The translations under genes were made by a program, and so were the position numbers. From the NCBI GenBank assembly GCA_947487955.1, contig CANKYV010000003.1, positions 15,165-79,164 on the forward strand: a stretch of 64,000 bases of DNA, written 5' to 3'. The DNA is from Alphaproteobacteria bacterium (GTDB taxonomy: Bacteria > Pseudomonadota > Alphaproteobacteria > Paracaedibacterales > CAITNM01). Shown in pieces: positions 3,521 to 55,709 of the stretch. Numbering within the stretch: the stretch's first letter is position 1; every line of letters starts with the position of its first letter. Below the pieces are notes generated by a model that made no database searches, was not told the origin of the DNA, and was given only the letters and a program-made list of their open reading frames with translations.

Positions 3521-3523
3521 GTA

Positions 3524-4588
3524 ATGTCCAAATACCCTCCTGTAATCATCAAAAAATATAAGAAATCCCATCAAGCCGCACACGGTGGTGCCTGGAAGAT
3601 TGCATACGCTGATTTTATTACGTCAATGATGGCATTGTTTCTACTAATGTGGCTAATTAGCGTTACAACAGAAGAAACAAAAAGAGGTATCTCGGAGTAT
3701 TTTACAACAAGCATTATTAGCATGAAATCAGCCAATGCCGGCACTGGCATAATTAATGGAGATAACGCATCAACACAAAATGGCAGCAATGATCAAGAAG
3801 AACCAAAAACCGAAGAAAACAAAAAATACAATTCTTATAATTCAAATGTTTCAATACAAAACAACCAACACATTCAACAAATGTCAACAAACGTATCAAC
3901 TACACTTCAAGATGCTAATAAGCAGCAACAAGGTACTATTGCTAAAAATATTAATGCAGAATTTTTAAAAAAAACCGAAGAAAAAGAGCTCGAAGAAAAT
4001 GTTGAAGAAATAGCTAATGAAATCGCAGCGACCAAACAAGCTCAAGAAGAAATACGTCAAAGTATTGAGAATAGCATAAGAAATGCTTTTAATTCAGTGC
4101 AAGAAGTAGAAAAATTTAAGCACAACCTTATTATCGAGTTAACTGACGAAGGCATTAGAATTCAAATAGTTGATAGTTCTGAACACGAAATGTTTAAAAC
4201 TGGCAGTGCGATACCAGCAAAATTCACAGAAACAATTATCAGAACTTTAGGCGAAATTCTCACAACCTTACCAAATAAAATTGAAATTACAGGTCATACT
4301 GATTCTCTACCCTATCGTCATAAAAAATATAGTAATTGGGAATTATCCGCAGATAGAGCAAATTCTACCCGAAGAATTTTAGAAGAAAGTGGGGTAAAAA
4401 ATGATAGGTTTGAAGAAGTTAATGGTCGTGCCGACAAAGACCCTTTAAATAAAATAGACCCAAAAGCACCAGAAAATAGGCGTGTAAGCATCACTGTTTT
4501 GTATAATGATTCACAACAATCATTAGAAGCTATGGAGACAGAAGATCAAAAAAACAACAACAGCAATATGCCAAAAATAATTCTGTAA
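3524..4588 (+). CDS. motB: Flagellar motor stator protein MotB (OmpA-like C-terminal domain, extended N/Q/E-rich linker)
   Basis: N-terminal AHGGAWKIAYADFITSMMALFLLMW (MotB TM/plug region). C-terminal OmpA-like peptidoglycan-binding motif TGHTDSLPY...NWELSADRANSTRR...NRRVSI. Confidence 0.9.
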   Translation: MSKYPPVIIKKYKKSHQAAHGGAWKIAYADFITSMMALFLLMWLISVTTEETKRGISEYFTTSIISMKSANAGTGIINGDNASTQNGSNDQEEPKTEENKKYNSYNSNVSIQNNQHIQQMSTNVSTTLQDANKQQQGTIAKNINAEFLKKTEEKELEENVEEIANEIAATKQAQEEIRQSIENSIRNAFNSVQEVEKFKHNLIIELTDEGIRIQIVDSSEHEMFKTGSAIPAKFTETIIRTLGEILTTLPNKIEITGHTDSLPYRHKKYSNWELSADRANSTRRILEESGVKNDRFEEVNGRADKDPLNKIDPKAPENRRVSITVLYNDSQQSLEAMETEDQKNNNSNMPKIIL

Positions 4589-8356: not shown

Positions 8357-9178
8357 TTAGAATGGTAAAAGCTTATTGAGATATTGTTGTCCCCATGGCG
8401 CTTGTTGCGCATCGCTAAGATCGCCTCTACCACCATAGCTAATACGAAGGTTAGCAATTTTTTGACTATTAATTTTATTACTCGAATTAATATCTTCTCG
8501 TCGAACTACTCCTTTAATTTCTATCTCACGAAGCTCATTAATAAGGCGAACTTCTTCACGCCCCTGAATTACTAGATTTCCATTAGGAAGGATTTGAATT
8601 ACTACAGCCGACATAGTAAATTGCATTTTATCTTTCACATCATAAGATGCAGTTGAACTATGGTCTGGGTTACTAGTCATTCCAACCCAGTTACCCGTAA
8701 GTCCAGAAGGAGTATTAGCATTAGTAACTGGATTACTGCCTGATAAGTCTCCATCTTGGCCCCTTTTTCCAGGAAGGGCACGAGATAAACGTTTTTGAAT
8801 TGGAAATGCATGACCAAGCACTTCACTAACTGAAGTGTTAAGAGTACTTTGTCGTTGAATACTAGGATTCATTTGTATGTTTTGTGAACGATTTATATCG
8901 ACTTCAACCGTTAATACATCACCAACTTTGCCTGCACGTTGGTCTTTAAAGAAAGCACGGGAGCCAGTTTGCCATAAAGAATTTGTAGGTTTTCCTGGAT
9001 CTGGCATAGGTGATGGCATTGGCATATCTACAGGTTCATACCCAGGAACATCTTTTGGATTTTTTATTTGTGTCATTTGTGGAGGCTCACCTATTGTTGA
9101 AAGATTGGTTGCCAAATTACAACCAGGCAATAACACAATAAGGAGCAACGAGGCTAAATATAACTTACGCAAAACCAT
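8357..9178 (-). CDS. flgH: Flagellar L-ring lipoprotein FlgH
   Basis: Lipobox LLPGC. The conserved SLWQTGSRAFFKDQRAGKVGDVLTVEV and ISYGGRG motifs are typical of FlgH. Confidence 0.9.
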   Translation of the reverse strand: MVLRKLYLASLLLIVLLPGCNLATNLSTIGEPPQMTQIKNPKDVPGYEPVDMPMPSPMPDPGKPTNSLWQTGSRAFFKDQRAGKVGDVLTVEVDINRSQNIQMNPSIQRQSTLNTSVSEVLGHAFPIQKRLSRALPGKRGQDGDLSGSNPVTNANTPSGLTGNWVGMTSNPDHSSTASYDVKDKMQFTMSAVVIQILPNGNLVIQGREEVRLINELREIEIKGVVRREDINSSNKINSQKIANLRISYGGRGDLSDAQQAPWGQQYLNKLLPF

Positions 9179-9953
9179 AAATAATTTCCGCTGTACTTGG
9201 ACCTACAACTTTTGCTGATATTTTTTTTATCATTTGTTTTGAATTATCTTGTTGCGTTTCAAATGTGCCTGTATCCCCATAAGCTAAATCCTGGGTTGCT
9301 CGTGCTTTAGCGCTTACTAACAAACATTGACTGCGATAAACGACATCAACCATCTCTCCTCTTTTAATAATTATTGGATTTTTTAATAAAGATCTCTCAA
9401 CTGGCAATCCAGGTTTTACGATTGTATGAGCTGATGTCTTGCCAACTAGATCATTGGCATCCATCACCACCATGGCATTGAGCTGATCAACCGGATAAGA
9501 TTGGTAGCCTACATCAGATACATTAATAATATCATCTGCACCTATAGGTCTAAGTAATATGGGAATATGCGCTAGCCATTCAATTTTTCCAGAAAAAATA
9601 ATTTGCTCACCAGATTTGAATCTTAAAGTCATTTCAAAATCTCGTTGCTGCGGAGAAATATTTAACTCACTAACTTCTGCGCTATCTAAGCTTGTAGATT
9701 CTGCAATAGTTTGATTTGACATTCTTTCAATGATTACATTGAAGTTCTTTGTATTAATTTTTTTCTCAATAATAGGCTGTGAAAAATTTGCAAGATCTAA
9801 CTTAGAAAATCTTCCCTTTGATAGAGCTTTCTCAGCACTCAGACAATTCATGTTTGAAAATGCTATTATAATTGCAGTACTAAAAAAAACTACAATACTT
9901 GAAAAATCTCTCTTTTCAGAAAAAAAACTAAAAAATTTACTCAAACTAATCAT
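9165..9953 (-). CDS. flgA: Flagellar basal-body P-ring formation chaperone FlgA
   Basis: N-terminal signal sequence. C-terminal SAF-like segment IVKPGLPVERSLLKNPIIIKRGEMVDVVY. Positioned between flgG and flgH, overlapping flgH by 14 nt. Confidence 0.8.
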   Translation of the reverse strand: MISLSKFFSFFSEKRDFSSIVVFFSTAIIIAFSNMNCLSAEKALSKGRFSKLDLANFSQPIIEKKINTKNFNVIIERMSNQTIAESTSLDSAEVSELNISPQQRDFEMTLRFKSGEQIIFSGKIEWLAHIPILLRPIGADDIINVSDVGYQSYPVDQLNAMVVMDANDLVGKTSAHTIVKPGLPVERSLLKNPIIIKRGEMVDVVYRSQCLLVSAKARATQDLAYGDTGTFETQQDNSKQMIKKISAKVVGPSTAEIIYGFA

Positions 9954-9967
9954 TTTACCCTCCCATG

Positions 9968-10771
9968 CTATTTCATAGCATTTACTGCATGCATCATTGC
10001 ATCGCCTGTTTTTACAGCTTTAGTGAGCATTTCATAAACTTTTTCAATTTTTATTAGATCAGTCATTTCTTCTACTGCATTTACGTTAGATCCTTCGCGA
10101 TAAGCTTGTTTTAAATATCCACGTTGGTTTGTACCTGGCGATCCTGTATCTGGACTTCCAGAAGCATTGGTTTCAACAAACAAACTGTCTCCCATTGCTA
10201 GCAATCCTGAAGGATTAGAAAAGGTTGAAAGTTGCAATTGACCAACATTTACTTCTTGTCCTGGACTTGTTTCTGCATACACTTCACCCATTTGATTAAT
10301 AGAAACTTTCAGAGTGTTTTGCGGAAGGGTAATGCCTGGCTGGATAGTGTAACCCGTTTTTGGCATAACTAATGTATTGTCTTTATCACGACTAAAGCTA
10401 CCAACTCTTGTATAAGCTTTAGTACCATCAGGTAGTGTCACTGAGAAAAAACCATCACCATCAATCATGACATCAAGGCTTCTCCCCGTTTGAATTGCCT
10501 CACCTTGAGAGAACACCCTATAAACAGCCGCAGCTTGCACACCAGTACCAATTTGCACACCTGTTGTATCGGTAGAACCAGATTGTGAGGTCGCAACTCC
10601 CACACTTCCATGATCAATGTACGGAAGGTCATACATCACCAAATATTGACGTTTAAATCCATCTACATTTTGAGAAGCAATATTTTGTGTTTTAATCGCT
10701 AAAAGAGCTTCTTGGCTTTGCAAGCCTGTACGCGCAATATTAAGTGAATCTTGAACTGAAACTGTTGCCAT
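9968..10771 (-). CDS. flgG: Flagellar basal-body distal rod protein FlgG
   Basis: 267 aa. N-terminal rod motif NIASQNVDGFKR. C-terminal SNVNAVEEMTDLIKIEKVYEMLTKAVKTGD, typical of the FlgG/FlgE family. Confidence 0.9.
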   Translation of the reverse strand: MATVSVQDSLNIARTGLQSQEALLAIKTQNIASQNVDGFKRQYLVMYDLPYIDHGSVGVATSQSGSTDTTGVQIGTGVQAAAVYRVFSQGEAIQTGRSLDVMIDGDGFFSVTLPDGTKAYTRVGSFSRDKDNTLVMPKTGYTIQPGITLPQNTLKVSINQMGEVYAETSPGQEVNVGQLQLSTFSNPSGLLAMGDSLFVETNASGSPDTGSPGTNQRGYLKQAYREGSNVNAVEEMTDLIKIEKVYEMLTKAVKTGDAMMHAVNAMK

Positions 10772-10780
10772 AATTTCCTA

Positions 10781-11539
10781 CTACACATTCTTAGGTGAAA
10801 CGTTGATTTCTTTTTTGCTCTTTTGATCTTGCTCTTGCATAACTTGTTGTGCGTACTCAAATTGTCGTAAAGTTTCCATCATAACAATGCTTTCGCTTAC
10901 ACCTGACACATTTGAATCTTCTAGTCCAAATTGCTTTATGTAATACGTATTTGATATTTCAGGTACTTGTTGAGTAGGATCCAATAGATTATTTCCTAAA
11001 CACTTTAATTGCTCTTGCTGATCATCAACCGAAAAAACACCAATTTTTCCGACAAGAACAGAATCAGCGTATACTCCCCCTTTCGAGTGAATAATTATCT
11101 GATTAGTTCCCGACGGAATAACAATATGTCCACCACCTTGATCCAGAACATAATTAGAACCACTAGCTGTGACGAGCTTACCATCACTATTAAGTGCAAA
11201 TTGCCCGTTTCGCGTTAAATATTTCCCCTTATCTGTTTCAACCATGAAGTATCCATTAACACTACTTAAAGATACATCCAAGGGATTCCCTGTTTGACGA
11301 TAAGAACCATTTGCTAAATTTCGTAATGCTTTATTAGCACATACATAATTAACAACTCGGTTGTCTTTACCTTTTTGTGTTGCATTAACAAGCTTAATCA
11401 TCTGACTTTTAAAGCCAGGCGTATTAGCATTTGCCAAGTTATTTGTTGAAATCGCCAAGCGCACCCACTGCGCTTCTTGAGAAGATAAAGCAACTGCATT
11501 TGGTTTTTGAACTGAATAATCAGGCTTGTTTATATGCAT
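10781..11539 (-). CDS. flgF: Flagellar basal-body rod protein FlgF
   Basis: 252 aa. N-terminal NNLANANTPGFK rod motif and C-terminal EDSNVSGVSESIVMMETLRQFE. Lies immediately upstream of flgG. Confidence 0.85.
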   Translation of the reverse strand: MHINKPDYSVQKPNAVALSSQEAQWVRLAISTNNLANANTPGFKSQMIKLVNATQKGKDNRVVNYVCANKALRNLANGSYRQTGNPLDVSLSSVNGYFMVETDKGKYLTRNGQFALNSDGKLVTASGSNYVLDQGGGHIVIPSGTNQIIIHSKGGVYADSVLVGKIGVFSVDDQQEQLKCLGNNLLDPTQQVPEISNTYYIKQFGLEDSNVSGVSESIVMMETLRQFEYAQQVMQEQDQKSKKEINVSPKNV

Positions 11540-42603: not shown

Positions 42604-43107
42604 TTATGCTGCTTCCACAGCATAAATGGGAAGAATTGTTTTCATCTCTCTTCCCATAAAACTTAGCAATAAATGAACGCGGCTTTTATCATCAAGGGCA
42701 TCAAATCTTGCTTCCTGATCTTTAAAAGCCCCCTCGCAAATGCGAACTTTGTTCCCTTTTGTAAAAGCCACCAAGCTTGCCATCAGAACAACCTCGCTGC
42801 TAACTTCTTGCCCCATCAATTCATCGATCACTCTACATGGAACTTGCGCTGGTTTCAAATCATTACTCATCAATAAATGAGACACCCCACGCGCACCATT
42901 AATACTACGCCATTGAGCAGATTTCATGTCCATACCAACAAATATATAACGCGGAAAGAGAGGCGCTAAAATTTCATCAACTTTACGTGCATGTCGACGC
43001 ATTTTTTTAAATCTTGGCGCATAAACTTCATACCCCATATCCAGCAAGTTTTTTTTAGCAACAAGCTCTTTTAAAGGTTGAGTATAAGCAACACACCATG
43101 TTATCAC
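42604..43107 (-). CDS. NusG-family paralog (RfaH/specialised-NusG-like transcription antiterminator)
   Basis: NGN-domain pattern W.VAYTQP..E..A...L...G.EVY.P......R...K..E...PLFPRYIFV plus a C-terminal KOW-like FTKGNKVRICEGAF. The GTG at 43107 forms a GTGA overlap with the upstream gene's stop; the ORF-track start is 43158. Confidence 0.75.
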   Translation of the reverse strand: MITWCVAYTQPLKELVAKKNLLDMGYEVYAPRFKKMRRHARKVDEILAPLFPRYIFVGMDMKSAQWRSINGARGVSHLLMSNDLKPAQVPCRVIDELMGQEVSSEVVLMASLVAFTKGNKVRICEGAFKDQEARFDALDDKSRVHLLLSFMGREMKTILPIYAVEAA

Positions 43108-43682
43108 GGTTTCACCTTCGAAATATGTAACAGTTCTAATGTCAATAATCGCTGACACTCAATTTTACTCTTAATAGCATCATATGTTTCTTGTGGATTT
43201 ATAATATCTGTAACAAAAACAGCGTCATACTTTTTAAAATCCGCACTGATATCCACAACTTCCACAATGACGCCTGTTCCATGCGCAACAAGCCTTGCAA
43301 TGTCTGCTAAATCTCCACTACCAACAAGCGCTACCACTAACCATTTATGAGATTTGCATACTTCAAAAATTTCTTCACACTGTGTACGGGCATCCCTAAA
43401 AAAAGTCATCGAACGCGCTAGATAATTGGTCACCATAAGACTTTTTTCTGAAAATCCTTTTGGCGTTAAAAAATATGTAATACGACGCGGTGAAAGCTGA
43501 GAGGCTCGAATCCAACCCTTTGTAACACAACTCTTCAGATATTGATTCATTAAACCTAAAGCAATACCAAGTTCACCAGCTAAACCTCGCTGAGTAAAAG
43601 ATGGATTGCGCTCGATCTCACTTAAGAGATGCACCATGACCTTTTGCTCCGCATGCTCACGAGTATCTTGAAAAGTAGCCAT
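43104..43682 (-). CDS. Winged-helix (MarR/EPS-associated type) transcriptional regulator with an extra C-terminal Rossmann-like domain
   Basis: The N-terminal ~100 aa carry ...NPSFTQRGLAGELGIALGLMNQYLKSCVTKGWI....YFLTPKGF..K (wHTH). The C-terminal part carries VVALVGSGDLADIARL..., a G-x-G-containing beta-alpha-beta-like segment. It is the first gene of the locus. Confidence 0.65.
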   Translation of the reverse strand: MATFQDTREHAEQKVMVHLLSEIERNPSFTQRGLAGELGIALGLMNQYLKSCVTKGWIRASQLSPRRITYFLTPKGFSEKSLMVTNYLARSMTFFRDARTQCEEIFEVCKSHKWLVVALVGSGDLADIARLVAHGTGVIVEVVDISADFKKYDAVFVTDIINPQETYDAIKSKIECQRLLTLELLHISKVKP

Positions 43683-43835
43683 TAATTTGTAATTCTAGAG
43701 TTGGTTATGTTCATGAACAGAACGTACATTACTCTTAAAAAAGAGTCAAATATTAATAACATATAATCAAAACTTGAAAAATGCACATTACCTTGCTATA
43801 TGTTACGGTAAGATGGTATTAGTCTGATTAGGTCT

Positions 43836-44624
43836 ATGTCACAAGAAACTCAAAATTTCGTTCATGCACGCCAAACACGCCGTAAGGAGCTGTTTAATGG
43901 CCGCACGAAGATATTGTTTGATGGTCCTGAACCAGGAACATTGGTTTTATATTTTAAAGACAGCCTTGATCAAAAAGGAGATTTGCAAGCTTCAACCGCT
44001 CATGGTGCGCTGAATAATCGTTTTTCTGAACTGCTAATGCAGCGCTTAAATCAAATTGGCGTTGAAACACATTTGATCAAACGTTTAAATATGCGTGAAC
44101 AACTTGTTCGATTAGCGGATCCTATGCCATTTCGTTTTCGCGTTCACAATATTGCGATTGATTCTTTAGCAACTTTGTTCAATCTAGAACCTGGCACAGT
44201 ACTTAGCGAACCCATTATTGAATTGTACCTAAAAAATGATAAAGGTGAACAAACAGTTATAGCCCCACAACATGCTTATGCTCTTGGTTGGGCGCAAGAA
44301 GAAGAACTTGAAGTCTTATTTAGTGCTATTCGCCGTATTAATGATTTTCTGCTCGGGCAATTTTTAGCTTTAAATCTTCGCTTAGCAAATTATTGCCTAG
44401 AATTTGGCCGCATCTTTACTCAAGATTTTTTTGAATCCACTAAACTTATTTTAATAGATGCATTTGGACTAGATTCCTCATCAATTTTAGACACTCAATC
44501 GGGTGAACGCTTAGATTCCGGCGCAAGTTTTGGCACAAATTGGACTGGCTGCAAAGAAGTTGCACGCCGCTTTGGGTTACTTGAGTATTTAAATACTGAA
44601 GCTACAACTCAAGAGGCAGCTTAA
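43836..44624 (+). CDS. SAICAR synthetase (PurC)-like protein, strongly diverged in catalytic motifs
   Basis: It is collinear with alphaproteobacterial PurC (GRTKILFDGPEPGTLVLYFKD; LNNR; IKRLNMREQL). The segments I recall as substrate-binding are replaced: DDATAFN becomes DSLDQKG, ADEISPDSCRLWD becomes IDAFGLDSSSILD, and DKDRFRRD is absent. Confidence 0.6.
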   Translation: MSQETQNFVHARQTRRKELFNGRTKILFDGPEPGTLVLYFKDSLDQKGDLQASTAHGALNNRFSELLMQRLNQIGVETHLIKRLNMREQLVRLADPMPFRFRVHNIAIDSLATLFNLEPGTVLSEPIIELYLKNDKGEQTVIAPQHAYALGWAQEEELEVLFSAIRRINDFLLGQFLALNLRLANYCLEFGRIFTQDFFESTKLILIDAFGLDSSSILDTQSGERLDSGASFGTNWTGCKEVARRFGLLEYLNTEATTQEAA

Positions 44625-44627
44625 ATT

Positions 44628-44849
44628 ATGCCTATCCTTTTATCAGATTTAGAGCATCGTTTAAAAACAGCGTTCCCTAATGGAAACGTCATCATAACTG
44701 ATTTAGCCGGTGACAATGATCATTACCTAGCAGATATTACTTGTGCAAGCTTTAAAGGCTTAAACCGAATACAACAACATCAAAAGGTTTACGCAGCACT
44801 TAAAGAATGTAATATTCATGCTTTATCTATAAAAACAAATCATAATTGA
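44628..44849 (+). CDS. bolA: BolA-family protein
   Basis: 73 aa. BolA pattern DLAGDNDHY...SF.G...I.QH..VY.AL.....IHALSIKT. grxD follows. Confidence 0.85.
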   Translation: MPILLSDLEHRLKTAFPNGNVIITDLAGDNDHYLADITCASFKGLNRIQQHQKVYAALKECNIHALSIKTNHN

Positions 44850-44859
44850 GAGGAATGTC

Positions 44860-45189
44860 ATGAGCGATGCACACCAACAAATTGATGAATTAGTTAAAGG
44901 GAACGACATTGTCATATTTATGAAAGGCACTACTACTATGCCTATGTGCGGATTCTCAGCAACCGTTATACAAATCCTTAATCAACTTAAGGTTCCCTTT
45001 AAAGACATCAATGTACTTATCGATCCAACTCTTCGCCAAGGCGTTAAGGATTACACCAACTGGCCTACAATTCCTCAATTATATGTCAAAGGCGAATTTA
45101 TTGGCGGGTGCGATATAGTAAAAGAAATGTTTCAAAACGGTGAGTTACAAACGCTTTTAAAACAAAAACAACTTTTAAACGATGAATGA
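44860..45189 (+). CDS. grxD: Monothiol glutaredoxin (Grx4 family)
   Basis: 109 aa. CGFS active site, then WPTIPQLYVKGEFIGGCDI. Confidence 0.95.
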   Translation: MSDAHQQIDELVKGNDIVIFMKGTTTMPMCGFSATVIQILNQLKVPFKDINVLIDPTLRQGVKDYTNWPTIPQLYVKGEFIGGCDIVKEMFQNGELQTLLKQKQLLNDE

Positions 45190-45851
45190 AAAATCCAGCT
45201 GGCCGAGTTATCTTAAAATCAAAAAAGAAGCGAACTCAATCATCGCGTAACTGGCTTTTACGTCAACTTAATGATCCTTTTGTTGCAAAGGCTAAGCAGG
45301 CAGGGTACCGCTCAAGAGCCGCTTTCAAACTTGTTGAAATTGACCAAAAGTATAAAATTTTCAAATCTGGCCAAACAGTTATTGATCTTGGCGCAGCCCC
45401 TGGTGGATGGACTCAGGTTATTGCTGAAAAAATCTCAAGTAAAGGTAAGGTTATCGCTCTTGATTTGCAAGATATTGAACCTTTTAGCAATCCTAATACT
45501 TTCATTATCAAAGGAGACTTTGAAGATGAATCTGCACAACAACAATTATTGCAACATGTAGATTTGGCAAATGTCATCGTTTCAGACATGGCTGCTGCCG
45601 CGTGCGGCATTCCTTCCGTTGATCACATTCGCATTCTCAATCTTTTAGAATCTGCTTTAAATTTTTCCCTTAGCCATTTAGCAAAGAATGGATCATTTGT
45701 TGCTAAGGTTTTACGGGGAGGCACAGAAGGAGAACTATTAAAAAAACTAAAAATTCACTTCACTAAAGTTGTACATTTTAAACCTAATTCAAGTCGACAA
45801 GATTCTGCTGAAATGTACGTTGTTGCTATAGGATTTAAAGGAAATCATTAA
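45186..45851 (+). CDS. rlmE: 23S rRNA (uridine2552-2'-O)-methyltransferase RlmE (FtsJ)
   Basis: SSRNWLLRQLNDPFV..A...GYRSRAA.KL.EID, and the SAM motif DLGAAPGGWTQV. ATGA overlap with the grxD stop. Confidence 0.9.
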   Translation: MKNPAGRVILKSKKKRTQSSRNWLLRQLNDPFVAKAKQAGYRSRAAFKLVEIDQKYKIFKSGQTVIDLGAAPGGWTQVIAEKISSKGKVIALDLQDIEPFSNPNTFIIKGDFEDESAQQQLLQHVDLANVIVSDMAAAACGIPSVDHIRILNLLESALNFSLSHLAKNGSFVAKVLRGGTEGELLKKLKIHFTKVVHFKPNSSRQDSAEMYVVAIGFKGNH

Positions 45852-45908
45852 TAGAAAATTAATAATTCCCATTATAGACTCAAGGTATCAAATTCATCAG
45901 AGCTTCAT

Positions 45909-46754
45909 ATGAAAAAGTTTTTTTTACTAGGTATCTTTTTTCAAGCAATATCTTTAACTTGTAGCATTTTTTCAATGGAACAGGAGGAATTGTCTAATCA
46001 AAGTAATGCTTCAGTACATGGTGTTACGTTAAGTAAAAATCCCGAGAATCCCAATGAAATCTGGATCAGATTAAGCCCAGAGATGCCTACATTAATAAAT
46101 CCATTATTTGCAAGAATAAATTCTAAATTTGGTGTTTTTGTAACAGAAACATTTAGAGAGCACTTATTTTTTGTCCCCGAGGTATTCACCACGCAAGAAT
46201 CACAAGATTGGTATGTGGAAACCTTAATAAATCTAACTAGAGCATACGGATTTGATAGATTAGTAAATTCTGAGCTTATGCCAAAACTTAATATGAATAC
46301 TTTACCAACCATTATTTTTAATCCTTTTATCACAATTTTAAATGAAATTTATACCTGCGAATCACGTGTTAATGAAGTAGAGAGATTATTTTTATTCTGT
46401 GACGCCTTTATGAAAGGTTCAGAAATTGAGACTAAATTAACTAGCATAACAAGCTCTGAGGAAGGTGATAATACAGCGATTAGTGCTTTTTGTGAAGAAA
46501 AAGCACGAGAAAAAAATAGAATTGGTTCATTAAAAAATCTTATGATTGTAACTGATATTGGCTTTAAATATTTGGGCTATAGTAATCCCGCAGAAGCTCA
46601 AATGAACACTCACTTTGCAGTTCTCAAAACAAAAATAAAAGAGAGCGTAACAAGAATTACGTCTTTACTTAATGAATTGAGCAATCGAAAAACCATAGAA
46701 CAGCGCAATCAATACTTTACAAGTTTGTCTGAAGATATAGAGGAAGCGGCATAA
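45909..46754 (+). CDS. Hypothetical secreted protein (orphan)
   Basis: 281-aa ORF with a signal-like N-terminus (MKKFFLLGIFFQAISLTCSIFS). I recognise no family motif. Confidence 0.5.
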   Translation: MKKFFLLGIFFQAISLTCSIFSMEQEELSNQSNASVHGVTLSKNPENPNEIWIRLSPEMPTLINPLFARINSKFGVFVTETFREHLFFVPEVFTTQESQDWYVETLINLTRAYGFDRLVNSELMPKLNMNTLPTIIFNPFITILNEIYTCESRVNEVERLFLFCDAFMKGSEIETKLTSITSSEEGDNTAISAFCEEKAREKNRIGSLKNLMIVTDIGFKYLGYSNPAEAQMNTHFAVLKTKIKESVTRITSLLNELSNRKTIEQRNQYFTSLSEDIEEAA

Positions 46755-46871
46755 ACTGATGATAACCAACCATTATTGACCTTAACAGCCTTCATGACTT
46801 TATTGCATTAGCACACAATAGGCTTTATTGTGATGAAATAAAAAATACAATACCATATTAGAAATTTTGTT

Positions 46872-47979
46872 ATGAAGGCTGAAAATCTCCACAAAGTCAA
46901 TCAGATCGAACAAGCATTAACCTTGCTGAGGAGGCATCTTTGACTGGGACGCAGCTCAAAAACACTTACAAACATTAGATCAACAAGCTGAATCCTCCAC
47001 GCTTTGGGATAATCCTACTGCCGCTCAAAAAATACTAAAAGAACGAGATACGTTGAAAACAGCTTTAAAAAGAGTCGTTGATTTAAAGCAAGATCTTGAT
47101 GATACCGTAACTCTAATTGAGCTGGCAGAGGCAGAGCAGGATCAAGCTACAGAAGCAGAAGCAGAAAAAGAATTAGATATTTTGTGCGCAAAGGCACTTA
47201 AGCTTCAATTAGAAAGCCTGCTTTCTGGTGAAGCTGATACTTGCAATGCTTTCATTGAAATTAATGCAGGTGCTGGCGGAACTGAAGCCCAGGATTGGGC
47301 AGAAATACTAGCACGTATGTACACACGATGGGCTGACAGCAAAGGATACAAGCTTGAAATTTTAGATGAAAGCCCCGGAGAAGAAGCAGGCCTGAAATCA
47401 ATCACCATAAAAGTTGATGGGTTTAGATCATACGGATGGCTAAAAACTGAAAGCGGCGTGCATCGTTTAGTGCGCATTTCTCCTTTTGATTCAAACGCTC
47501 GTCGTCATACCAGTTTCGCTTCTGTTTGGGTATATCCTGAAGTTGATGAAAATATTGATATTCAAATTGAAGAAAAAGATTTAAGAATTGATACATACCG
47601 TGCCTCTGGCGCAGGTGGACAGCATGTTAATAAAACCGAAAGCGCCATTCGTATTACCCACCTTCCAACTAATATTGCGGTGCAGTGCCAAAGTGATCGC
47701 TCACAACACCGTAACCGAGCACAAGCCTACACTATGTTGCGCGCCAGACTTTATGAACTTGAACTACGTGAACGAGAAGCAAAAGCAAATGCTAACAGCA
47801 GCTCAAAAACTGACATCGGCTGGGGACACCAAATTCGCTCATACGTCCTGCAACCATACCAAATGGTAAAAGACACAAGAACCGGTGTAGAACGCGGCAA
47901 TGCCCAAGGCGTGCTTGATGGTGATATTGATGTGTTCTTAGAAGCAAGCCTTGCTCAACGCATTGGCGAGAGCGACTAA
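46872..47979 (+). CDS. prfB: Peptide chain release factor 2, expressed through a programmed +1 frameshift (46872..46940 joined to 46942..47979)
   Basis: Frame 0 reads MKAENLHKVNQIEQALTLLRRHL, then an in-frame TGA at 46941. The +1 frame continues DWDAAQKHLQTLDQQ... into the ORF-track ORF (47053..47979), which carries SPF and GGQ (RASGAGGQHVNKTES). Confidence 0.95.
46928..46944 (+). promoter_or_regulatory. prfB +1 frameshift cassette (internal SD-like GAGGAGG, CTT slippery codon, TGA C)
   Basis: The sequence is GAGGAGG CAT CTT TGA C. This matches the canonical RF2 autoregulatory site, which has an SD-like element 3 nt before CUU UGA C. Confidence 0.9.
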
Positions 47980-48043: not shown

Positions 48044-49045
48044 ATGTATCAATATTTAGTATTTCTATTTCTTTCATTTCCTCAATTGTGGGCAGATGTT
48101 TTTCCTCTTGTGTCATTTGCAGGGAAAAGGTATACAATTCCGTTCGCTCGCCATATATCTCATGATCACGATGATAAATATTACGAAATATATTTTAAAA
48201 GCCTTGTAAAAAAATACAAACGAGACAGAATCAGTGATATGCCAGAGGTCATGCATGATCCTTTTAGTGTCCCTTATTCTACAATTAGCTGGCAAATGGA
48301 AGGTTTAGGAGCTTTTGTACCAGAATACGAACAAGGATCAGAGAAAATAAGAGTATATATAGCAAAAAAAAGACGATATGAAACTCATCCTCAAGCAGTA
48401 ATGGATCCTTTAGATTTTTCAACAATTACTAATGAATCTCATACTGAAAGACAACTCCTCAAAAAATTCTTAGATGACAAGCCTACAGGTATTTGTGGAA
48501 CTATTCTCATATTTACCGACAGCACCCCCTGCCAAGCACCTCATGCTGATAATAATCTTCTTTCTTGCACAGATTTTTATACTTTTTTAGCTGAAAGATT
48601 TCCAAACGTATCCTTCAAAATTTTTTTTAGATCCATGCGCATCGAAGAAAGTATCAAAAAAAGTGAGTATAAAAAGCTACTAGATTTCATTAGGATATAT
48701 TGTGAAGAAGCGTCAAGAGCTGGAATTGCAGATAATTATTTTCGATTAGCTATTATCAAAAAAAATGAACTAGGGGCAAAACTTTCAGAAGCGAGTGAGC
48801 ATTTGGAAGCAAGTGAGCATTTGGAAGCAATAGATGCAAAAGAAATAGTGTTAGAATATAAAGCTCAGCCAAAGAACCCACAAAATAACCGGTGGGAAAA
48901 AATTACTAATAACAGTTTTCCCATAACGATTATTAGACAAGTTAACTCTTGGCTTACCACGTTAAATTTTGAAACAAAAAACAAGCTATTTAATCATGTT
49001 TTCTCTTGGGACAAAGTAACGTATTGCCTCCTTGACAATGATTAA
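48044..49045 (+). CDS. Secreted hypothetical protein with an AID/APOBEC-like zinc-deaminase signature (candidate nucleic-acid deaminase effector)
   Basis: Signal-like N-terminus MYQYLVFLFLSFPQLWA. The central segment is SHTERQLLKKFL-(x17)-ILIFTDSTPCQAPHADNNLLSCTDFYTFLAERFPNVSFKIFF. This gives HxE, then 26 residues, then PC, then a Cys, then an FL...PNV.F.IF helix/strand pattern like AID/APOBEC. The confidence value refers to the functional call; the ORF itself is solid. Confidence 0.45.
   Translation: MYQYLVFLFLSFPQLWADVFPLVSFAGKRYTIPFARHISHDHDDKYYEIYFKSLVKKYKRDRISDMPEVMHDPFSVPYSTISWQMEGLGAFVPEYEQGSEKIRVYIAKKRRYETHPQAVMDPLDFSTITNESHTERQLLKKFLDDKPTGICGTILIFTDSTPCQAPHADNNLLSCTDFYTFLAERFPNVSFKIFFRSMRIEESIKKSEYKKLLDFIRIYCEEASRAGIADNYFRLAIIKKNELGAKLSEASEHLEASEHLEAIDAKEIVLEYKAQPKNPQNNRWEKITNNSFPITIIRQVNSWLTTLNFETKNKLFNHVFSWDKVTYCLLDND
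48788..48829 (+). repeat. 18-bp in-frame tandem repeat (2.3 copies; encodes EASEHL EASEHL EA)
   Basis: GAAGCGAGTGAGCATTTG / GAAGCAAGTGAGCATTTG / GAAGCA, read directly from the sequence. There is one synonymous difference between the copies. Confidence 0.9.
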
Positions 49046-49581
49046 ACTGTAATCTTTTTTACACTCTTATAGTTTTTGCCAGTTATGCTTGAATCAACTG
49101 GATTACTAGAAAGGTTTAATTCATCTAGTGCAGCACCTATAAAAGGAATGTTACTTAGCGCCTTCTCAAACAATTGGACATCTCTTCCTAAGTTATTCCC
49201 GCTTAAATTAATTTTTAAAACTGTATAAGGATGTATAAATCCTAATAAGCTCATTAATTTATCATCAGTAATTTGGCAATTAGTGATACTTAGCTCTGAA
49301 ACAGCAAAACCATACAAGAATGCAAAATCTTCAGTTTCCGAAAAAGCACAAGCATCAATTGATAAGCTTCTTAATTCTTCCTTATTAAATTCAAAGACGT
49401 CCCATTTTTCCCAAAAAGCGCAATCAATCTCTAGATTTTTCAGTTTAACGGATTTTAACGACGTCCCAACTGGCAACAACAGGGCATTCCAAGCATTCCC
49501 ACCATCAACATCTAAATCCATTCCATGAAGACCAAAAAACGTCGCGCAAAAAAAGATAAAAATGCGGACTTTTTTTGTCAT
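49042..49581 (-). CDS. Secreted leucine-rich repeat protein (ribonuclease-inhibitor-type LRRs)
   Basis: 179 aa. Signal-like N-terminus MTKKVRIFIFFCATFFGLHG. Repeats include LKNLEIDCAF, LRSLSIDACAF, VSELSITNCQITDDKLMSLL, LKINLSGNNLG and LDELNLSSNPV. Confidence 0.7.
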   Translation of the reverse strand: MTKKVRIFIFFCATFFGLHGMDLDVDGGNAWNALLLPVGTSLKSVKLKNLEIDCAFWEKWDVFEFNKEELRSLSIDACAFSETEDFAFLYGFAVSELSITNCQITDDKLMSLLGFIHPYTVLKINLSGNNLGRDVQLFEKALSNIPFIGAALDELNLSSNPVDSSITGKNYKSVKKITV

Positions 49582-49670: not shown

Positions 49671-50078
49671 CTAGCTTATCGGTGGATTTTTAGAGTTTCT
49701 AAACTCATTCTGCTGATTTGCTAAAACTTCTTTCAGCAGAACTTTCAATTCCTGGATTTCACGCTCAGCTTTTAGGTTAATATGATAATCTTTCTCAGCT
49801 TGAATTCTATCTTTTGCCTCTTGACGATTTTGACTCATCATAATAATTGGCGCCTGTAATGCTGCAATACATGAAAGAACTAAATTTAAAAATATGTAAG
49901 GATAAGGATCAAATGGTTGGCGAAAAATCACCCAAGAATTAAGAACAATCCATATAATAAGCATCATCTTAAAAAGAATAATAAATGTCCAACTCCCACC
50001 AAATTTGGCAACTTTATCAGCCCATCTTTCTCCCATAGTATTTTGTTGAGAACTATCTTTTGGAAAATTCTTTTTCAT
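49671..50078 (-). CDS. DUF1003-family membrane protein
   Basis: 135 aa. ADKVAKFGGSWTFI, then two TM segments with FDPYPYIFLNLVLS..AALQAPIIMMSQNRQ and a C-terminal coiled segment, which is the DUF1003 pattern. Confidence 0.75.
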   Translation of the reverse strand: MKKNFPKDSSQQNTMGERWADKVAKFGGSWTFIILFKMMLIIWIVLNSWVIFRQPFDPYPYIFLNLVLSCIAALQAPIIMMSQNRQEAKDRIQAEKDYHINLKAEREIQELKVLLKEVLANQQNEFRNSKNPPIS

Positions 50079-50101: not shown

Positions 50102-53059
50102 TTATTCAGTTTCAGTCACATACCTTAACCAAAGTCGTGATATTTTTTCCAACAAACTATTTTGTCGACTGCGATTTTGCAAATCTTCAAATGGCATAGA
50201 TTGCATCAGTAATTCCTGATTTTTACAACAAAACTGTGGACCATCTCCATTTACAATCATGCATTGCCCACATATGCCTTGCATCATGCATTGCATAGGA
50301 ACGTTAACATTGGTAATTGTTTTAAGATTATTATTTAGCGACTTTTCTAACAAAAGAAGCTCTTTAGAAATAGCCTCCTGCATAGATGTTGATCCCATCA
50401 CAAAAAGCCAATCAACAGTTTGCAAAATATTTTCATCTTTTAAACAATACAACCCATCTATAGCATTTCCATGATTTTCATCAGCTTTAGCCTCTGCGTA
50501 ATACCACAATATTTTATCTGAAGCTAATTCAATTTCCTCAACATGTGTTCTATCAGTACTTGATCGGTATCCAGCTATCCAGTAAACCTTATTACCTTTT
50601 TCTTTTAATGCTTTCCCCATATGGATAAGGGCCAGATTAAAATGTCCACCCCCTATCAATAAAACATTTTGATTGCTAGGCAATTCAGTTGGCGTACCCG
50701 TGGGTCCCATTAAAGCTACAGTTTCTCCAGGTCGCAAAAATTGCGCTAGCATCGAAGAGCTTCCTATTTCCACAATCACAAAGGTAATGATTCCGCTTAC
50801 TTTATCAACTTTAACAGGTGTAAGCGCTAAAGCTTCCATGGCCAAGCGAGTGTCGTTCACAATAGGGGCAAGGGATTCAAAATTTTGAAGACGATAAAAT
50901 TGACCTGGTTGAAATGTTGCAGCAGCAAGAGGTGCTTTAACGTCGATTTGGATAAGATTTTTCGCAAGACGCGTTACGGTTAAGACCTCAGCTTTTAGCA
51001 AGTCATTCCACTCAACTTTAGGCAAAGGTGAGTTAGCTTTTAGGCTTTCACTAATATTTTGATAACCGTACTTTGCACTAGCAATTGCTTTTACCACACT
51101 TCCTGCATAACTAGGATGCGCGTCTCCAAAACTCAGGTGATTTTGATTTAATGGCTCGTGATGCGTTCCAACTGCCATAATAATACAACGCGCTGAAATA
51201 AATTCTTCTTTGTCATTACGTATTACCCACAAACCTTTTGCATACCCCGTGTCATCTTTTTCAATACGCAAAGGCACTAAGTTATGCTCAAAAATAATAC
51301 CTTCTTCTAGCGCTTTTTCAACTTCTTCATGATTTAAAGAATAGCTTGGCGCATTAGTGATATCAGAGCGGTAAATAATTCGAACTTCTGTCTCTTCACA
51401 AGTTAATAACTGTTCTGCGACAAGATGGTCCTGAACAGTCCACCACTTTTTAATCTCTTCTTCTCCATAAATTTCTAGCAACTTGTTATAACGATGCTTA
51501 AATTTTTTTACTTGCTCTTTGTAATAAGCCTTAGCTTCAGTTGCAGTATCAATTGCCGTTAGACCTCCACCAATTACCAAAATAGGACCCAAAATTTGTA
51601 AATTAGCTAAGGAATCTTTTTTTGCAGCACCCGTTAACTGCAATCCCATCAAAAAATCACTAGCTAAACGTACTCCAGGCGTTGATATTCCAGGTATATC
51701 TAATAACTTTGGCGCTCCTGCTCCTGTACATAAGGTAACAGCATCAATACCTAGTTGTTTATAATTACCTTCATGAATTTGTCCCCCAAAGCGGGTCGAG
51801 CCAAAAAATTGAATATTGTTTCTACGCTCAAGTAACAACCGTATTATTTTTAAATAATTTTTATTCCAACGAACCGTAATGCCATATTCCGCTACACCAC
51901 CAAAGCCACTAAGAATGCGCTCATCCAAATTCTCATAAAGCATGCTCACATCTTTAATTAATTTTTTTTCTAAAAGCTCAGCTGATAATGGCTCAAGCTT
52001 GGCGCCATCAATACCCACTACCATATGCCCATCTCGACTCAGATAATGCGCCAAACTAAATCCAGCTGGACCCAACCCCACAACAAGGACTTGGTAACCA
52101 GTCTCAGGCATAGGTAAAGGTTGGGTAAGATTCAACGGATTCCAACGAGTCAACAAACTATAAATTTCAAACCCATAAGGCAAGCTCAGAACTGAATTTA
52201 AAATATTAGTTTCAGCTCCAGGTGTATTTACAGGACTTTGCTTTTGAAAAATGCACGACTTCATACAGTCATTACAAATGCGATGTCCTGTTGCTGCAAC
52301 CATAGGATTATCAATCATAATTACAGCAAGTGCAGCGATGTTCATTTCCTTGCGCTTTAAAACATGCATCTGCGAAATTTTTTGATCTAGTGGACAACCA
52401 GCTTTTTTAGGGCTCTGAGCAATTCCTGTGCGGCAACTATCTTTGCCTTGATTGTGGCACAAAATACAGTAATGCGTTTCACCTACTGATTGCTCGTTTG
52501 AAAAACCAGTATCAGTTAAAGAAAAACCGTCTCGCTCTCTGTGATTAGTCGTCACATATGAATGATCAACTTGTTTTATATTTCGTAGCAAAAAATTAGA
52601 ATTAATTTTTTCAGGCAAACAAAAAAGTGAATCAAATTTATGTTTTTGCTGCCCTTGGGACGTAAACACGGCCCATGCAGCATATTTCGCCAAATCATCC
52701 AAATGCGATGATTGCTGCTCAAGAGCACCGAGCGCAACTTTAGCAAATGTCAGCGCATTCGTAAAAGTATATAAATGTTGCCAATCATCTTGTGGAGTAC
52801 AAAATTCTTTCAATGCATAACGTTGTACAAATTGTCGTTTTGCAAAGGCTATAAGACTGTATTCAGAAGCATTTAGATAAAGCTCAGACAAAGTCTCGTT
52901 CAAGCTGAATTCTTCACATAAAAATTCTTCTAAATACTCTGCTGTCTCAATGAGTTCAAAACTAAAATCAGGATCTTTTGTTTTTACAAACTGTAAAAAA
53001 CATTCATGTAGTTTGCTTAACCCTTGAAGGGAATATAATGTATCGTAATCTAATTTCAT
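50102..53059 (-). CDS. Multidomain oxidoreductase: unknown N-terminal domain, GltD-like Fe-S/FAD/NAD(P) module and PyrK/NfnA-like FAD-[2Fe-2S] module
   Basis: Cys clusters CILCHNQGKDSC..GCP and GHRICNDCMKSC. Dinucleotide motifs VLVVGLGPAGFSLA and ILVIGGGLTAID. The C-terminal ferredoxin-reductase-like part ends in CMMQGICGQCM. I prefer the start at MKLDYD (53059) because a hairpin occupies 53060-53088; 53092 is the alternative. Confidence 0.75.
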   Translation of the reverse strand: MKLDYDTLYSLQGLSKLHECFLQFVKTKDPDFSFELIETAEYLEEFLCEEFSLNETLSELYLNASEYSLIAFAKRQFVQRYALKEFCTPQDDWQHLYTFTNALTFAKVALGALEQQSSHLDDLAKYAAWAVFTSQGQQKHKFDSLFCLPEKINSNFLLRNIKQVDHSYVTTNHRERDGFSLTDTGFSNEQSVGETHYCILCHNQGKDSCRTGIAQSPKKAGCPLDQKISQMHVLKRKEMNIAALAVIMIDNPMVAATGHRICNDCMKSCIFQKQSPVNTPGAETNILNSVLSLPYGFEIYSLLTRWNPLNLTQPLPMPETGYQVLVVGLGPAGFSLAHYLSRDGHMVVGIDGAKLEPLSAELLEKKLIKDVSMLYENLDERILSGFGGVAEYGITVRWNKNYLKIIRLLLERRNNIQFFGSTRFGGQIHEGNYKQLGIDAVTLCTGAGAPKLLDIPGISTPGVRLASDFLMGLQLTGAAKKDSLANLQILGPILVIGGGLTAIDTATEAKAYYKEQVKKFKHRYNKLLEIYGEEEIKKWWTVQDHLVAEQLLTCEETEVRIIYRSDITNAPSYSLNHEEVEKALEEGIIFEHNLVPLRIEKDDTGYAKGLWVIRNDKEEFISARCIIMAVGTHHEPLNQNHLSFGDAHPSYAGSVVKAIASAKYGYQNISESLKANSPLPKVEWNDLLKAEVLTVTRLAKNLIQIDVKAPLAAATFQPGQFYRLQNFESLAPIVNDTRLAMEALALTPVKVDKVSGIITFVIVEIGSSSMLAQFLRPGETVALMGPTGTPTELPSNQNVLLIGGGHFNLALIHMGKALKEKGNKVYWIAGYRSSTDRTHVEEIELASDKILWYYAEAKADENHGNAIDGLYCLKDENILQTVDWLFVMGSTSMQEAISKELLLLEKSLNNNLKTITNVNVPMQCMMQGICGQCMIVNGDGPQFCCKNQELLMQSMPFEDLQNRSRQNSLLEKISRLWLRYVTETE

Positions 53060-53088
53060 AAAAATAAGGGGCGCTCTTTCAGCACCCC
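53060..53088 (-). terminator. Candidate rho-independent terminator downstream of tlc
   Basis: The minus strand reads GGGGTGCT-GAAAG-AGCGCCCC (8 bp, one G-U pair) followed by TTATTTTTAT. It begins 37 nt after the tlc stop. Confidence 0.55.
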
Positions 53089-53124
53089 TCATACTAGCTT
53101 AATCGTAGCTTTTTAACAGCTAGA

Positions 53125-54909: not shown

Positions 54910-55155
54910 ATGATAAAAAAGCTTATATACAAAAGTCACTATCGCGGCACAAAAGAAGGAGATTTTATTTTATCTTCTTTTGCAAAAAGTAGCCTTGCAA
55001 ACTGTTCTAAGGATGAAATCAGAATGTACTCAGAACTACTTGAATATAAAGATACTGAAATTCATGAATGGGTCTTATTCCCTCAAAATTCCCCAGCTCT
55101 CTTAAAACCAATTATTTTAAAGATCGCTACTTTTCATGGTTTTACGAAGTTTTAA
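54910..55155 (+). CDS. sdhE: FAD assembly factor SdhE (SDHAF2/DUF339 family)
   Basis: About 81 aa. The pattern L.YKSHYRGTKEGDFILSSFA...L...S.DE...Y..LL...D.EI..W matches RGxxE(L)D...F SdhE-type proteins. The start is either 54898 or 54910. Confidence 0.7.
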   Translation: MIKKLIYKSHYRGTKEGDFILSSFAKSSLANCSKDEIRMYSELLEYKDTEIHEWVLFPQNSPALLKPIILKIATFHGFTKF

Positions 55156-55169
55156 CAAAAGGAGCTAGC

Positions 55170-55709
55170 ATGAAATATAAAGCAAAAATAATTTTATGGG
55201 ACAACGATGGCACTATAACAGCATCAAAAAATCCTAATGATAGAACTTCTAGAGCAAAAATAATTTTACCTGGTATTAAAGAGGAAATGAGTAATGCACA
55301 ATTTAATTTTGTAATCTCAGGCTTTAAGTCACAAGAAAGTGAATCGCAAAATTTTGACCCAGAAGAAATAACAACTAAATTTATTGACTTGATGAGTAAA
55401 CTTCCAATTAACGCAGTCGCCTTTTCTCCTATTATTGGAGGCACAGCTTGTTACCTGATTATTAAGAAAAATCATCAAATTATTATCAAAAAGGCTCATG
55501 AAAACCCCAATTATCATCAGTATATTGGTAAATTTAAGAAGCCTGATATTGGTATGTTCGTTGTAATGAAAGATGCTGCTTTAGAAGAATTTGGACAAAT
55601 TATAGAAAAGCAAAACACAATTATGATTGGTGATACATGGCATGATGAAGTAGCTGCCAAAACTTTTGGAATACCATTTATAAATGCTGAAATAATTCAT
55701 TCCAAATAA
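55170..55709 (+). CDS. HAD-superfamily phosphatase (subfamily IIIA, GmhB/histidinol-phosphatase-like)
   Basis: I chose the ATG at 55170, preceded by AAAAGGAG. HAD motifs DNDGTI (I), KPDIGMF (III) and IGDTWHDEVAA (IV). Confidence 0.7.
   Translation: MKYKAKIILWDNDGTITASKNPNDRTSRAKIILPGIKEEMSNAQFNFVISGFKSQESESQNFDPEEITTKFIDLMSKLPINAVAFSPIIGGTACYLIIKKNHQIIIKKAHENPNYHQYIGKFKKPDIGMFVVMKDAALEEFGQIIEKQNTIMIGDTWHDEVAAKTFGIPFINAEIIHSK

Follow-up and report, generated by a model that had tools for sequence, protein, structure and literature searches.

The closest described systems to the locus reported here are SAICAR (phosphoribosylaminoimidazolesuccinocarboxamide) synthetase PurC (EC 6.3.2.6; Escherichia coli 2GQR/2GQS, Ehrlichia chaffeensis 3KRE), pseudoenzymes such as the pseudokinases, and the BolA–Grx4 [2Fe-2S] module, for which we know of no third subunit of PurC ancestry. 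The locus lies in a 64,000-nucleotide stretch (the window, in which all coordinates are counted) of the 116,755-bp alphaproteobacterial metagenomic contig CANKYV010000003.1, and its first gene encodes a PurC homologue of similar length and with the same predicted fold, in which the N-terminal nucleotide-binding half and the residues K13, K123, E179 and D191 (E. coli numbering) are conserved. Unlike canonical PurC, this PurC-like protein has no R94, R199, D175, S/T33, K177, K211, R215, E90 or D129, scores far under the equivalog cutoff and has no pur gene beside it. It resembles pseudoenzymes in being an enzyme homologue without substrate and metal ligands that is nevertheless under strong purifying selection in a large clade; unlike typical pseudoenzymes, it appears to be the only part left of a pathway that endosymbionts have deleted and not a paralogue beside an active copy. 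The bolA–grx pair that follows it is intact and matches the known module, the two genes being invariably adjacent, on the same strand and stop/start-coupled, with Grx4 above its equivalog cutoff; what differs is the PurC-like partner, which gene order suggests. We consider it probable that the gene encodes a PurC-derived, non-catalytic pseudoenzyme that is made and acts with BolA–Grx4. The locus comprises the following features.

43683..43835, + strand: upstream intergenic region of 153 nt, common to the PurC-like gene and a divergently transcribed helix-turn-helix (HTH) gene; presumed operon promoter region
43836..44624, + strand: gene of the putative PurC-derived pseudoenzyme, 262 aa; Pfam PF01259 102.7 bits, TIGR00081 65.1 bits
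44611..44630, + strand: predicted translational-coupling junction; AAGAGG at 44611–44616, stop codon TAA at 44622–44624, 3 nt, bolA ATG at 44628–44630
44628..44849, + strand: bolA, 73 aa; Pfam PF01722, 39.9 bits against a cutoff of 25.7
44860..45189, + strand: Grx4/GrxD-type monothiol glutaredoxin, 109 aa; CGFS motif; TIGR00365 151.2 bits against a cutoff of 117.1
45186..45851, + strand: rlmE/ftsJ 23S rRNA methyltransferase; Pfam FtsJ 183.3 bits

The PurC ancestry of the 262-aa open reading frame (ORF) is evident from its match to the Pfam SAICAR_synt family (102.7 bits, E = 3.5e-29, cutoff 20) and from a PDB sequence search, in which the Ehrlichia PurC 3kre was the best solved structure (E = 1.6e-31) and 2gqr followed with E = 2.1e-22. 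The conserved strings that a first-pass annotation of the sequence had picked out, GRTKILFDGPEPGTLVLYFKD, LNNR and IKRLNMREQL, are all present in the ORF. An AlphaFold2 model (mean pLDDT 83.4, pTM 0.80) predicts that the SAICAR-synthetase fold is kept: in Foldseek searches against PurC crystal structures it gave query-normalised TM scores of 0.77–0.79 with E = 1e-20 to 1e-22, and TM scores to PurC structures of about 0.78–0.87. The score against TIGR00081, the NCBIfam equivalog model for PurC, is only 65.1 bits, with a cutoff of 189.9. In public records, these proteins simply bear the name 'phosphoribosylaminoimidazolesuccinocarboxamide synthase'.

The substrate-binding residues of PurC are well described. 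In the E. coli complex with ADP and carboxyaminoimidazole ribonucleotide (CAIR), E179 touches ADP and R94, S100, R199 and D175 touch CAIR, of which S100, R94 and R199 hold the 5'-phosphate and D175 the ribose (Ginder et al., as cited in PMC3261824); K11, K13 and R215 make further contacts (PMC3261824). In the human enzyme PAICS, the ATP site is formed by the loop G16–K19, K131 and N43, MgB and MgC are bound by E97 and D137 (E. coli E90 and D129), aspartate is held by T40, K191, K228 and R232 (E. coli S33, K177, K211 and R215), and the SAICAR site also includes R215 and the D212–W214 stretch (PMC9376930). These positions were transferred from human to E. coli PurC by pairwise alignment and from E. 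coli PurC to the window protein by MAFFT; the human PAICS sequence used agrees with 24/24 residues named in PMC9376930. The outcome, residue by residue, is given below.

E. coli K13 (ATP/MgA): window K25, retained
E. coli K123 (ATP): window K133, retained
E. coli E179 (ATP/MgA): window E189, retained
E. coli D191 (MgA): window D208, retained
E. coli D196 (listed in the SAICAR site): window D213, retained
E. coli E90 (MgB/C): window R100, replaced
E. coli D129 (MgB/C): window Q139, replaced
E. coli R94 (CAIR phosphate): window H104, replaced
E. coli S100 (CAIR phosphate): window S110
E. coli R199 (CAIR phosphate): window S216, replaced
E. coli D175 (CAIR ribose): window N185, replaced
E. coli S/T33 (aspartate): window D45, replaced
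E. coli K177 (aspartate): window C187, replaced
E. coli K211 (aspartate): window S228, replaced
E. coli R215 (aspartate/CAIR): no counterpart in the window protein

The catalytic erosion that the first-pass annotation had proposed is thus upheld by the ligand mapping, with CAIR, aspartate and MgB/C ligands all replaced. The motif changes on which that proposal was built were compared with canonical alphaproteobacterial PurC (alignment A1), where FKDDATAFN to FKDSLDQKG, VVVRN to RFRVHN and ADEISPDSCRLWD to IDAFGLDSSSILD were all recovered. The canonical DKDRFRRD segment is likewise gone, as had been claimed, but it is substituted (LDKDRFRRD to LDSGASFGT) and not simply deleted. Throughout the Finniella-type subgroup to which the window protein belongs, the CAIR-ligand columns read H, S/G/A/C and N.

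A homologue search among 5.8 billion proteins returned a tight group of sequences (P0001–P0020) at 60–89% identity to the window protein, with the next at ≤48%. The carriers identified in a genome-collection scan are Candidatus Finniella inopinata, Finniella sp., Candidatus Odyssella sp. and alphaproteobacterial metagenome-assembled genomes, belonging to the Paracaedibacteraceae (Holosporales). Besides the Finniella-type subgroup, eroded sequences fall into a subgroup of P0021, P0023, P0025 and P0028, a subgroup of mostly 288–304 aa (P0024, P0026, P0027, P0029–P0036 and P0038–P0041), and a subgroup of P0044 and P0049, the latter annotated as Paracaedibacteraceae bacterium. D175, R199, K211 and R215 are gone from the eroded subgroups with rare exceptions, and a histidine at position 94 is near-universal in the clade (weighted frequency 0.96). 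A neighbour-joining tree rooted on E. coli PurC unites all of the 42 eroded sequences in a single long-stemmed clade (100/100 bootstraps), nested among alphaproteobacterial PurCs. Members of the clade score 60–109 bits against TIGR00081, compared with 232 and 225 bits for the canonical controls P0058 and P0060. Placement of the 293-aa subgroup by its FtsH is weak, with 74–75% identity near Paracaedibacteraceae vs 70–73% to Rhodospirillales.

The clade appears to be large. Searching 1.84 billion 50%-identity representatives with a profile built from it yielded 3192 matches at E ≤ 0.001; when at least four of R94, D175, R199, K211 and R215 had to be replaced for a sequence to count as eroded, the best 150 of these matches comprised 60 eroded sequences, 42 canonical ones and 48 fragments or intermediates. 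One further eroded cluster, P0306, is possibly independent, and its contig stops 53 nt past the gene. Literature searches retrieved no description of a PurC-derived pseudoenzyme and no paper joining SAICAR synthetase with the term 'pseudoenzyme', and the PurC-like proteins are best read, from their sequences, as an old, large clade of such a pseudoenzyme that has so far gone undescribed. Two sister sequences, P0093 (locus L033) and P0037 (locus L034), group beside the eroded clade and still lie in pur operons; they carry changes at K211/R215 and D129, reach 177 and 165 bits against TIGR00081, both under the cutoff, and may be either fast-evolving PurCs or an early stage of the same drift.

A set of 80 canonical metagenomic PurCs (37–43% identity) served as controls. 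These 80 loci had come up as candidate members of the eroded clade and were rejected, since all of them look like ordinary PurC and keep D175 and R199; the metagenome profile scan returned ordinary PurC because the patterns NMREQL and NNRxSELxM are shared with the canonical enzyme. K13, D175, E179, D191 and R199 are kept in 80/80 of the controls. In the eroded clade, the CAIR, aspartate and MgB/C columns have a weighted entropy of 2.19 vs 1.16 for the other columns that canonical PurC conserves to the same degree (P < 1e-4). Because these columns have lost their constraint, the function common to the clade would not use the old substrate pocket; in the Finniella-type subgroup, where the remodelled pocket is fixed, there may be a lineage-specific ligand.

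Loss of the substrate site has not been followed by decay of the gene. The ORF is intact in 17/17 extracted loci, with neither a frameshift nor a premature stop, and the gene is retained in every lineage sampled. In Finniella/Odyssella-type genomes, over 20 intact orthologues at 60–89% identity share the replacements seen in the window protein. Within the Finniella-type group, 92 of the 262 positions are invariant, and the replacement residues D45, R100, H104, N185 and S228 are among them. Ratios of non-synonymous to synonymous substitution rates (dN/dS, or omega) were estimated by the Nei–Gojobori method (NG86); dS is saturated in most pairs, and the two unsaturated pairs, L013–L016 and L019–L020, therefore weigh most. 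The values for the genes of the locus are as follows.

PurC-like gene: median 0.059 over the usable pairs; L013–L016, 0.047 (17 synonymous, 3 non-synonymous); L019–L020, 0.052 (42 and 9)
grx4: median 0.065; L013–L016, 0.082; L019–L020, 0.036
rlmE: median 0.043; L013–L016, 0.096; L019–L020, 0.019
bolA: median 0.148; L013–L016, 0.312; L019–L020, 0.102

The PurC-like protein is as constrained as its housekeeping neighbours grx4 and rlmE, with an overall omega of 0.047–0.07 that is not that of a relic. The first-pass annotation had left the choice between a recent relic and a repurposed pseudoenzyme; the former is refuted, and the latter is supported by dN/dS near 0.05, the fixed replacements and the kept position. 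Loss of substrate residues, purifying selection and long retention, the combination that marks a pseudoenzyme, are found together here, and we infer catalytic inactivity from it.

The genomic setting of the gene can be traced to a larger cluster. We searched neighbourhoods by tblastn with the window BolA and Grx4 and with Roseospira PurS, PurQ and PurL. The order purC-purS-purQ-purL-bolA-grxD, to which the first-pass annotation had pointed, is found in Pelagibacteraceae (contiguous in eight loci), in L033 and in metagenomic loci. In L033, whose canonical PurC (P0093) adjoins the eroded clade in the tree, the cluster is complete and purB lies ~1.4 kb upstream; at the P0037 locus, bolA–grx is divergent from purC-purS-purQ. 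This compact order from purC to grx occurs in 8/25 canonical metagenomic loci with at least 3.9 kb of downstream sequence, and in 0/25 does bolA directly follow purC. In canonical operons, bolA is tightly packed behind purL. No bolA–grx follows purL in Roseospira and Brevundimonas, so that the purCSQL-bolA-grx arrangement is common, not universal. In every eroded locus, purS, purQ and purL are absent within ±10 kb, and no other pur gene was found among the ORFs scanned with Pfam across the 64-kb window. With intact clusters in relatives and purS/Q/L absent here, the proposed collapse of a purine operon onto bolA–grxD holds.

The window also contains the tlc nucleotide translocase gene that the first-pass annotation had reported (PF03219; 53125..54651, − strand), 8.5 kb downstream of the PurC-like locus. 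It adjoins genes for a 996-aa protein in which Pyr_redox_2 is the only domain (50102..53092, − strand) and a DUF1003 protein (49671..50078), and this trio is conserved in the P0003 loci. Symbionts of the Holosporales and Paracaedibacteraceae are described as dependent on host nucleotides (PMC11909080), and de novo nucleotide synthesis is reported to be lacking in these lineages, Anaplasmataceae excepted (PMC4198247). Among Rickettsiales, there is an inverse correlation between tlc transporters and nucleotide biosynthesis, and purine genes are retained in some Holosporales (PMC10847448). Given tlc, the deleted purSQL and this literature, a genome-wide loss of purine synthesis is plausible. Our literature searches on purC in Holosporales returned nothing relevant.

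The association with bolA–grx is the most constant feature of the eroded loci. The PurC-like gene is followed by bolA and grx in 21/21 eroded loci with readable downstream sequence, in four subgroups, and the triad stays while the flanks differ wholly between subgroups, as listed here.

Window: upstream, an O-antigen cluster with HTH and NusG paralogue genes
P0018 locus: MFS transporter, DNA polymerase III alpha
P0049 locus: RND pump, alaS
P0023 locus: type VI secretion genes, prmC
P0035 locus: mur/fts cluster
P0031 locus: FtsH, tldD

This conserved co-location suggests that the PurC-like gene belongs to the bolA–grx module. As the first-pass annotation had it, bolA starts 3 nt past the PurC-like stop codon and precedes the glutaredoxin gene; across the four same-strand genes from the PurC-like gene to rlmE, the spacing is 3 nt, 10 nt and a 4-nt overlap, and the PurC-like and bolA ORFs share one reading frame. 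The junction reads TAA-ATT-ATG in the window and TAAATG, an overlapping TAATG or TAA plus 3 nt in relatives, and in the 293-aa subgroup the two genes overlap by 20 nt. A purine-rich, Shine–Dalgarno (SD)-like run, AAGAGG or AGGAAG, lies within the last PurC-like codons; in the window it is AAGAGG and falls in the codons for Q-E-A-A. From these features, translation of the PurC-like gene and bolA is predicted to be coupled. In the Finniella-type subgroup, Q-E-A-A is conserved at the end of the disordered C-terminal tail (44610..44624 in the window; L003, L006 and L010–L020), probably because its codons double as the SD-like element for bolA; the tail may be kept at the RNA level, at the peptide level (as an ssrA-like -AA end), or at both. 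Literature searches gave nothing relevant on a link between purL, BolA and glutaredoxin or on pur–bolA–grx linkage.

Taken together, these observations indicate the following course of events. The gene goes back to a purC at the head of the ancestral alphaproteobacterial cluster purC-purS-purQ-purL-bolA-grxD, and purS, purQ and purL were removed in an ancestor of the Paracaedibacteraceae-type (Holosporales) endosymbionts, thereby bringing purC next to bolA-grxD. The protein has retained the predicted PurC fold and has lost the side chains for CAIR and aspartate and for two of three Mg ions, and strong purifying selection has since preserved an intact gene across many deeply diverged lineages. 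It presumably no longer makes SAICAR. A non-catalytic PurC-fold protein, for which the retained residues make ATP or nucleotide binding possible, would be made together with BolA and Grx4 and would act with, or on, this [2Fe-2S]-trafficking/regulatory pair; this role may go back to an additional function of PurC in the ancestral operon. In a broader and distinctly less likely version, such a second, non-catalytic role of PurC with BolA–Grx4 would extend across the Alphaproteobacteria and explain why bolA–grxD accompanies purCSQL, and it would be the sole function to survive in nucleotide-importing Holosporales-type endosymbionts, with the protein as a PurC-fold subunit or as a nucleotide sensor coupling adenylate status to Fe–S/iron homeostasis. 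E. coli PurC shows unvalidated ppGpp binding and is central in a two-hybrid network of purine enzymes (PMC10912719), which we take as leads only.

Several points weigh against the view of a non-catalytic pseudoenzyme acting with BolA–Grx4. E90 and R94 also vary in a few canonical PurCs that still lie beside purS/purQ, and the case for erosion therefore depends on the combined loss, above all of D175, R199, K211 and R215. The mean entropy of the ATP/MgA columns in the eroded clade, 1.11, equals the background, although K13, E179 and D191 are near-invariant; the stronger proposal that the ATP site is specifically preserved was dropped, as its columns are no better conserved than average. The monophyly is a neighbour-joining result only, which long-branch attraction could inflate, and additional independent erosions are possible because some eroded representatives are closest to canonical PurCs. 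Finally, the link between the PurC-like protein and BolA–Grx4 is one of gene order and coupling, and could be an inheritance from the old operon.

Other explanations account for parts of the same evidence. The protein might be a new enzyme, which would bind ATP-Mg through K25, E189 and D208 and use its remodelled pocket, which in the Finniella-type subgroup consists of D45, R100, R102, H104, N185 and S228, to phosphorylate or ligate another, phosphate-less substrate. This would fit the near-invariance of K13, E179, D191 and D196 in all eroded subgroups, the better conservation of the N-terminal nucleotide-binding half than of any other part of the protein, and the invariance of the replacement residues within the Finniella-type subgroup. 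However, H94 excepted, the former pocket has no common residue set in the four subgroups (R, Q, S, I, T, Y, L or F occurs at position 90, and S, H, Q, L, N or G at position 199), which makes it unlikely that the entire clade has one chemistry in common; neither MgB/C ligand remains, and K11 and A12 of the P-loop are variable. On balance we regard a new enzyme as unlikely. A protein that is still a working SAICAR synthetase with an unusual residue set would agree with the public annotation, and the few operon-linked PurCs that tolerate changes at E90 or R94 show that some of these positions can vary; nevertheless, R94, D175, R199, K177, K211, R215, E90 and D129 are lost together, none of the 80 canonical loci lacks D175 or R199, the equivalog score is 65 bits for a cutoff of 189.9, and pur genes are missing both from the neighbourhood and from the scanned ORFs of the 64-kb window, so that we give this explanation hardly any credence.

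It is also conceivable that the reading frame matters and the protein does not, the ORF being kept as a leader cistron that provides bolA–grx with the old purC promoter and with ribosomes terminating at its stop codon. The touching or overlapping stop and start codons in every lineage and the SD-like purine run in the last codons would be expected of such a leader, and bolA is equally tight behind purL in canonical operons. A spacer, however, would not hold dN/dS near 0.05, equal to that of grx4 and rlmE, nor keep 92/262 residues invariant, nor maintain a confidently predicted PurC fold across lineages at ~40% identity, which leaves a functionless protein very improbable. Still less would we expect a pseudogene in the making that has yet to acquire a stop codon. 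The loss of catalytic residues and of the partner genes purS/Q/L is what such a recent relic would look like at its outset, but the gene is intact in every locus examined, dN/dS is ~0.05 even in unsaturated pairs, the same erosion is common to a monophyletic set of 42 clusters, and about 60 of the best 150 50%-identity clusters look eroded.

The gene that follows grx, rlmE, is found there in loci L001–L006 and L010–L020 and was not found after grx in L007, the P0023 locus, L031 and L032. It is probably a co-transcribed passenger, since its linkage is confined to the Finniella-type subgroup. A scan of 43000–47200 for promoter and terminator consensus sites found them no more frequent than in shuffled sequence, and because this matches chance expectation no promoter was assigned upstream of the PurC-like gene. 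On the other side of the intergenic region, the HTH_24/MarR-like gene (43104..43682, − strand) is overlapped by a NusG paralogue (42604..43158, − strand); the pair heads a minus-strand polysaccharide/O-antigen cluster of ~20 kb, which reaches to about 21000 and encodes an ABC exporter, a GFO/hexapeptide enzyme, DegT aminotransferases, an epimerase, AsnB-like enzymes, a formyltransferase and glycosyltransferases. The trio of HTH, NusG and ABC genes recurs in locus L032 and resembles RfaH/UpxY-type operon-specific antitermination.

Downstream of rlmE, an ORF of 281 aa with a hydrophobic N-terminus (45909..46754) is inserted before prfB and is absent from the P0003 loci; it is one of four ORFs of 179–333 aa without a Pfam match, the others being 48044..49045, 49042..49581 and 55068..55709. 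The prfB gene for release factor 2 (46872..47979, + strand) has the classic programmed +1 frameshift, owing to which the ORF list gives it merely as a 308-aa ORF with a TTG start. Its ORF0 begins at ATG 46872, the frameshift site consists of an SD-like AGGAGG (46929–46934) followed by CAT CTT TGA C (CTT 46938–46940, TGA 46941–46943), and the main frame runs from 46942 to 47979. Elsewhere in the window (2666..4588 and 8357..11539) are motA/motB and the flagellar basal-body genes flgH, flgA, flgG and flgF, which agree with reports from Paracaedibacteraceae/Odyssella-type symbionts.

The finding bears on annotation, since the window protein and apparently dozens of related clusters carry a functional-PurC label in public databases. 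Because of these labels, reconstructions of Holosporales-type symbionts may credit a step of purine synthesis that is almost certainly lacking. For evolution, the locus offers a clean natural case of a pathway remnant that became a long-lived pseudoenzyme, with the excision of purSQL visible in the gene order. As to mechanism, it makes testable why bolA–grxD rides on the alphaproteobacterial purine operon, and whether there is an interaction between PurC-fold proteins and the BolA–Grx4 module.

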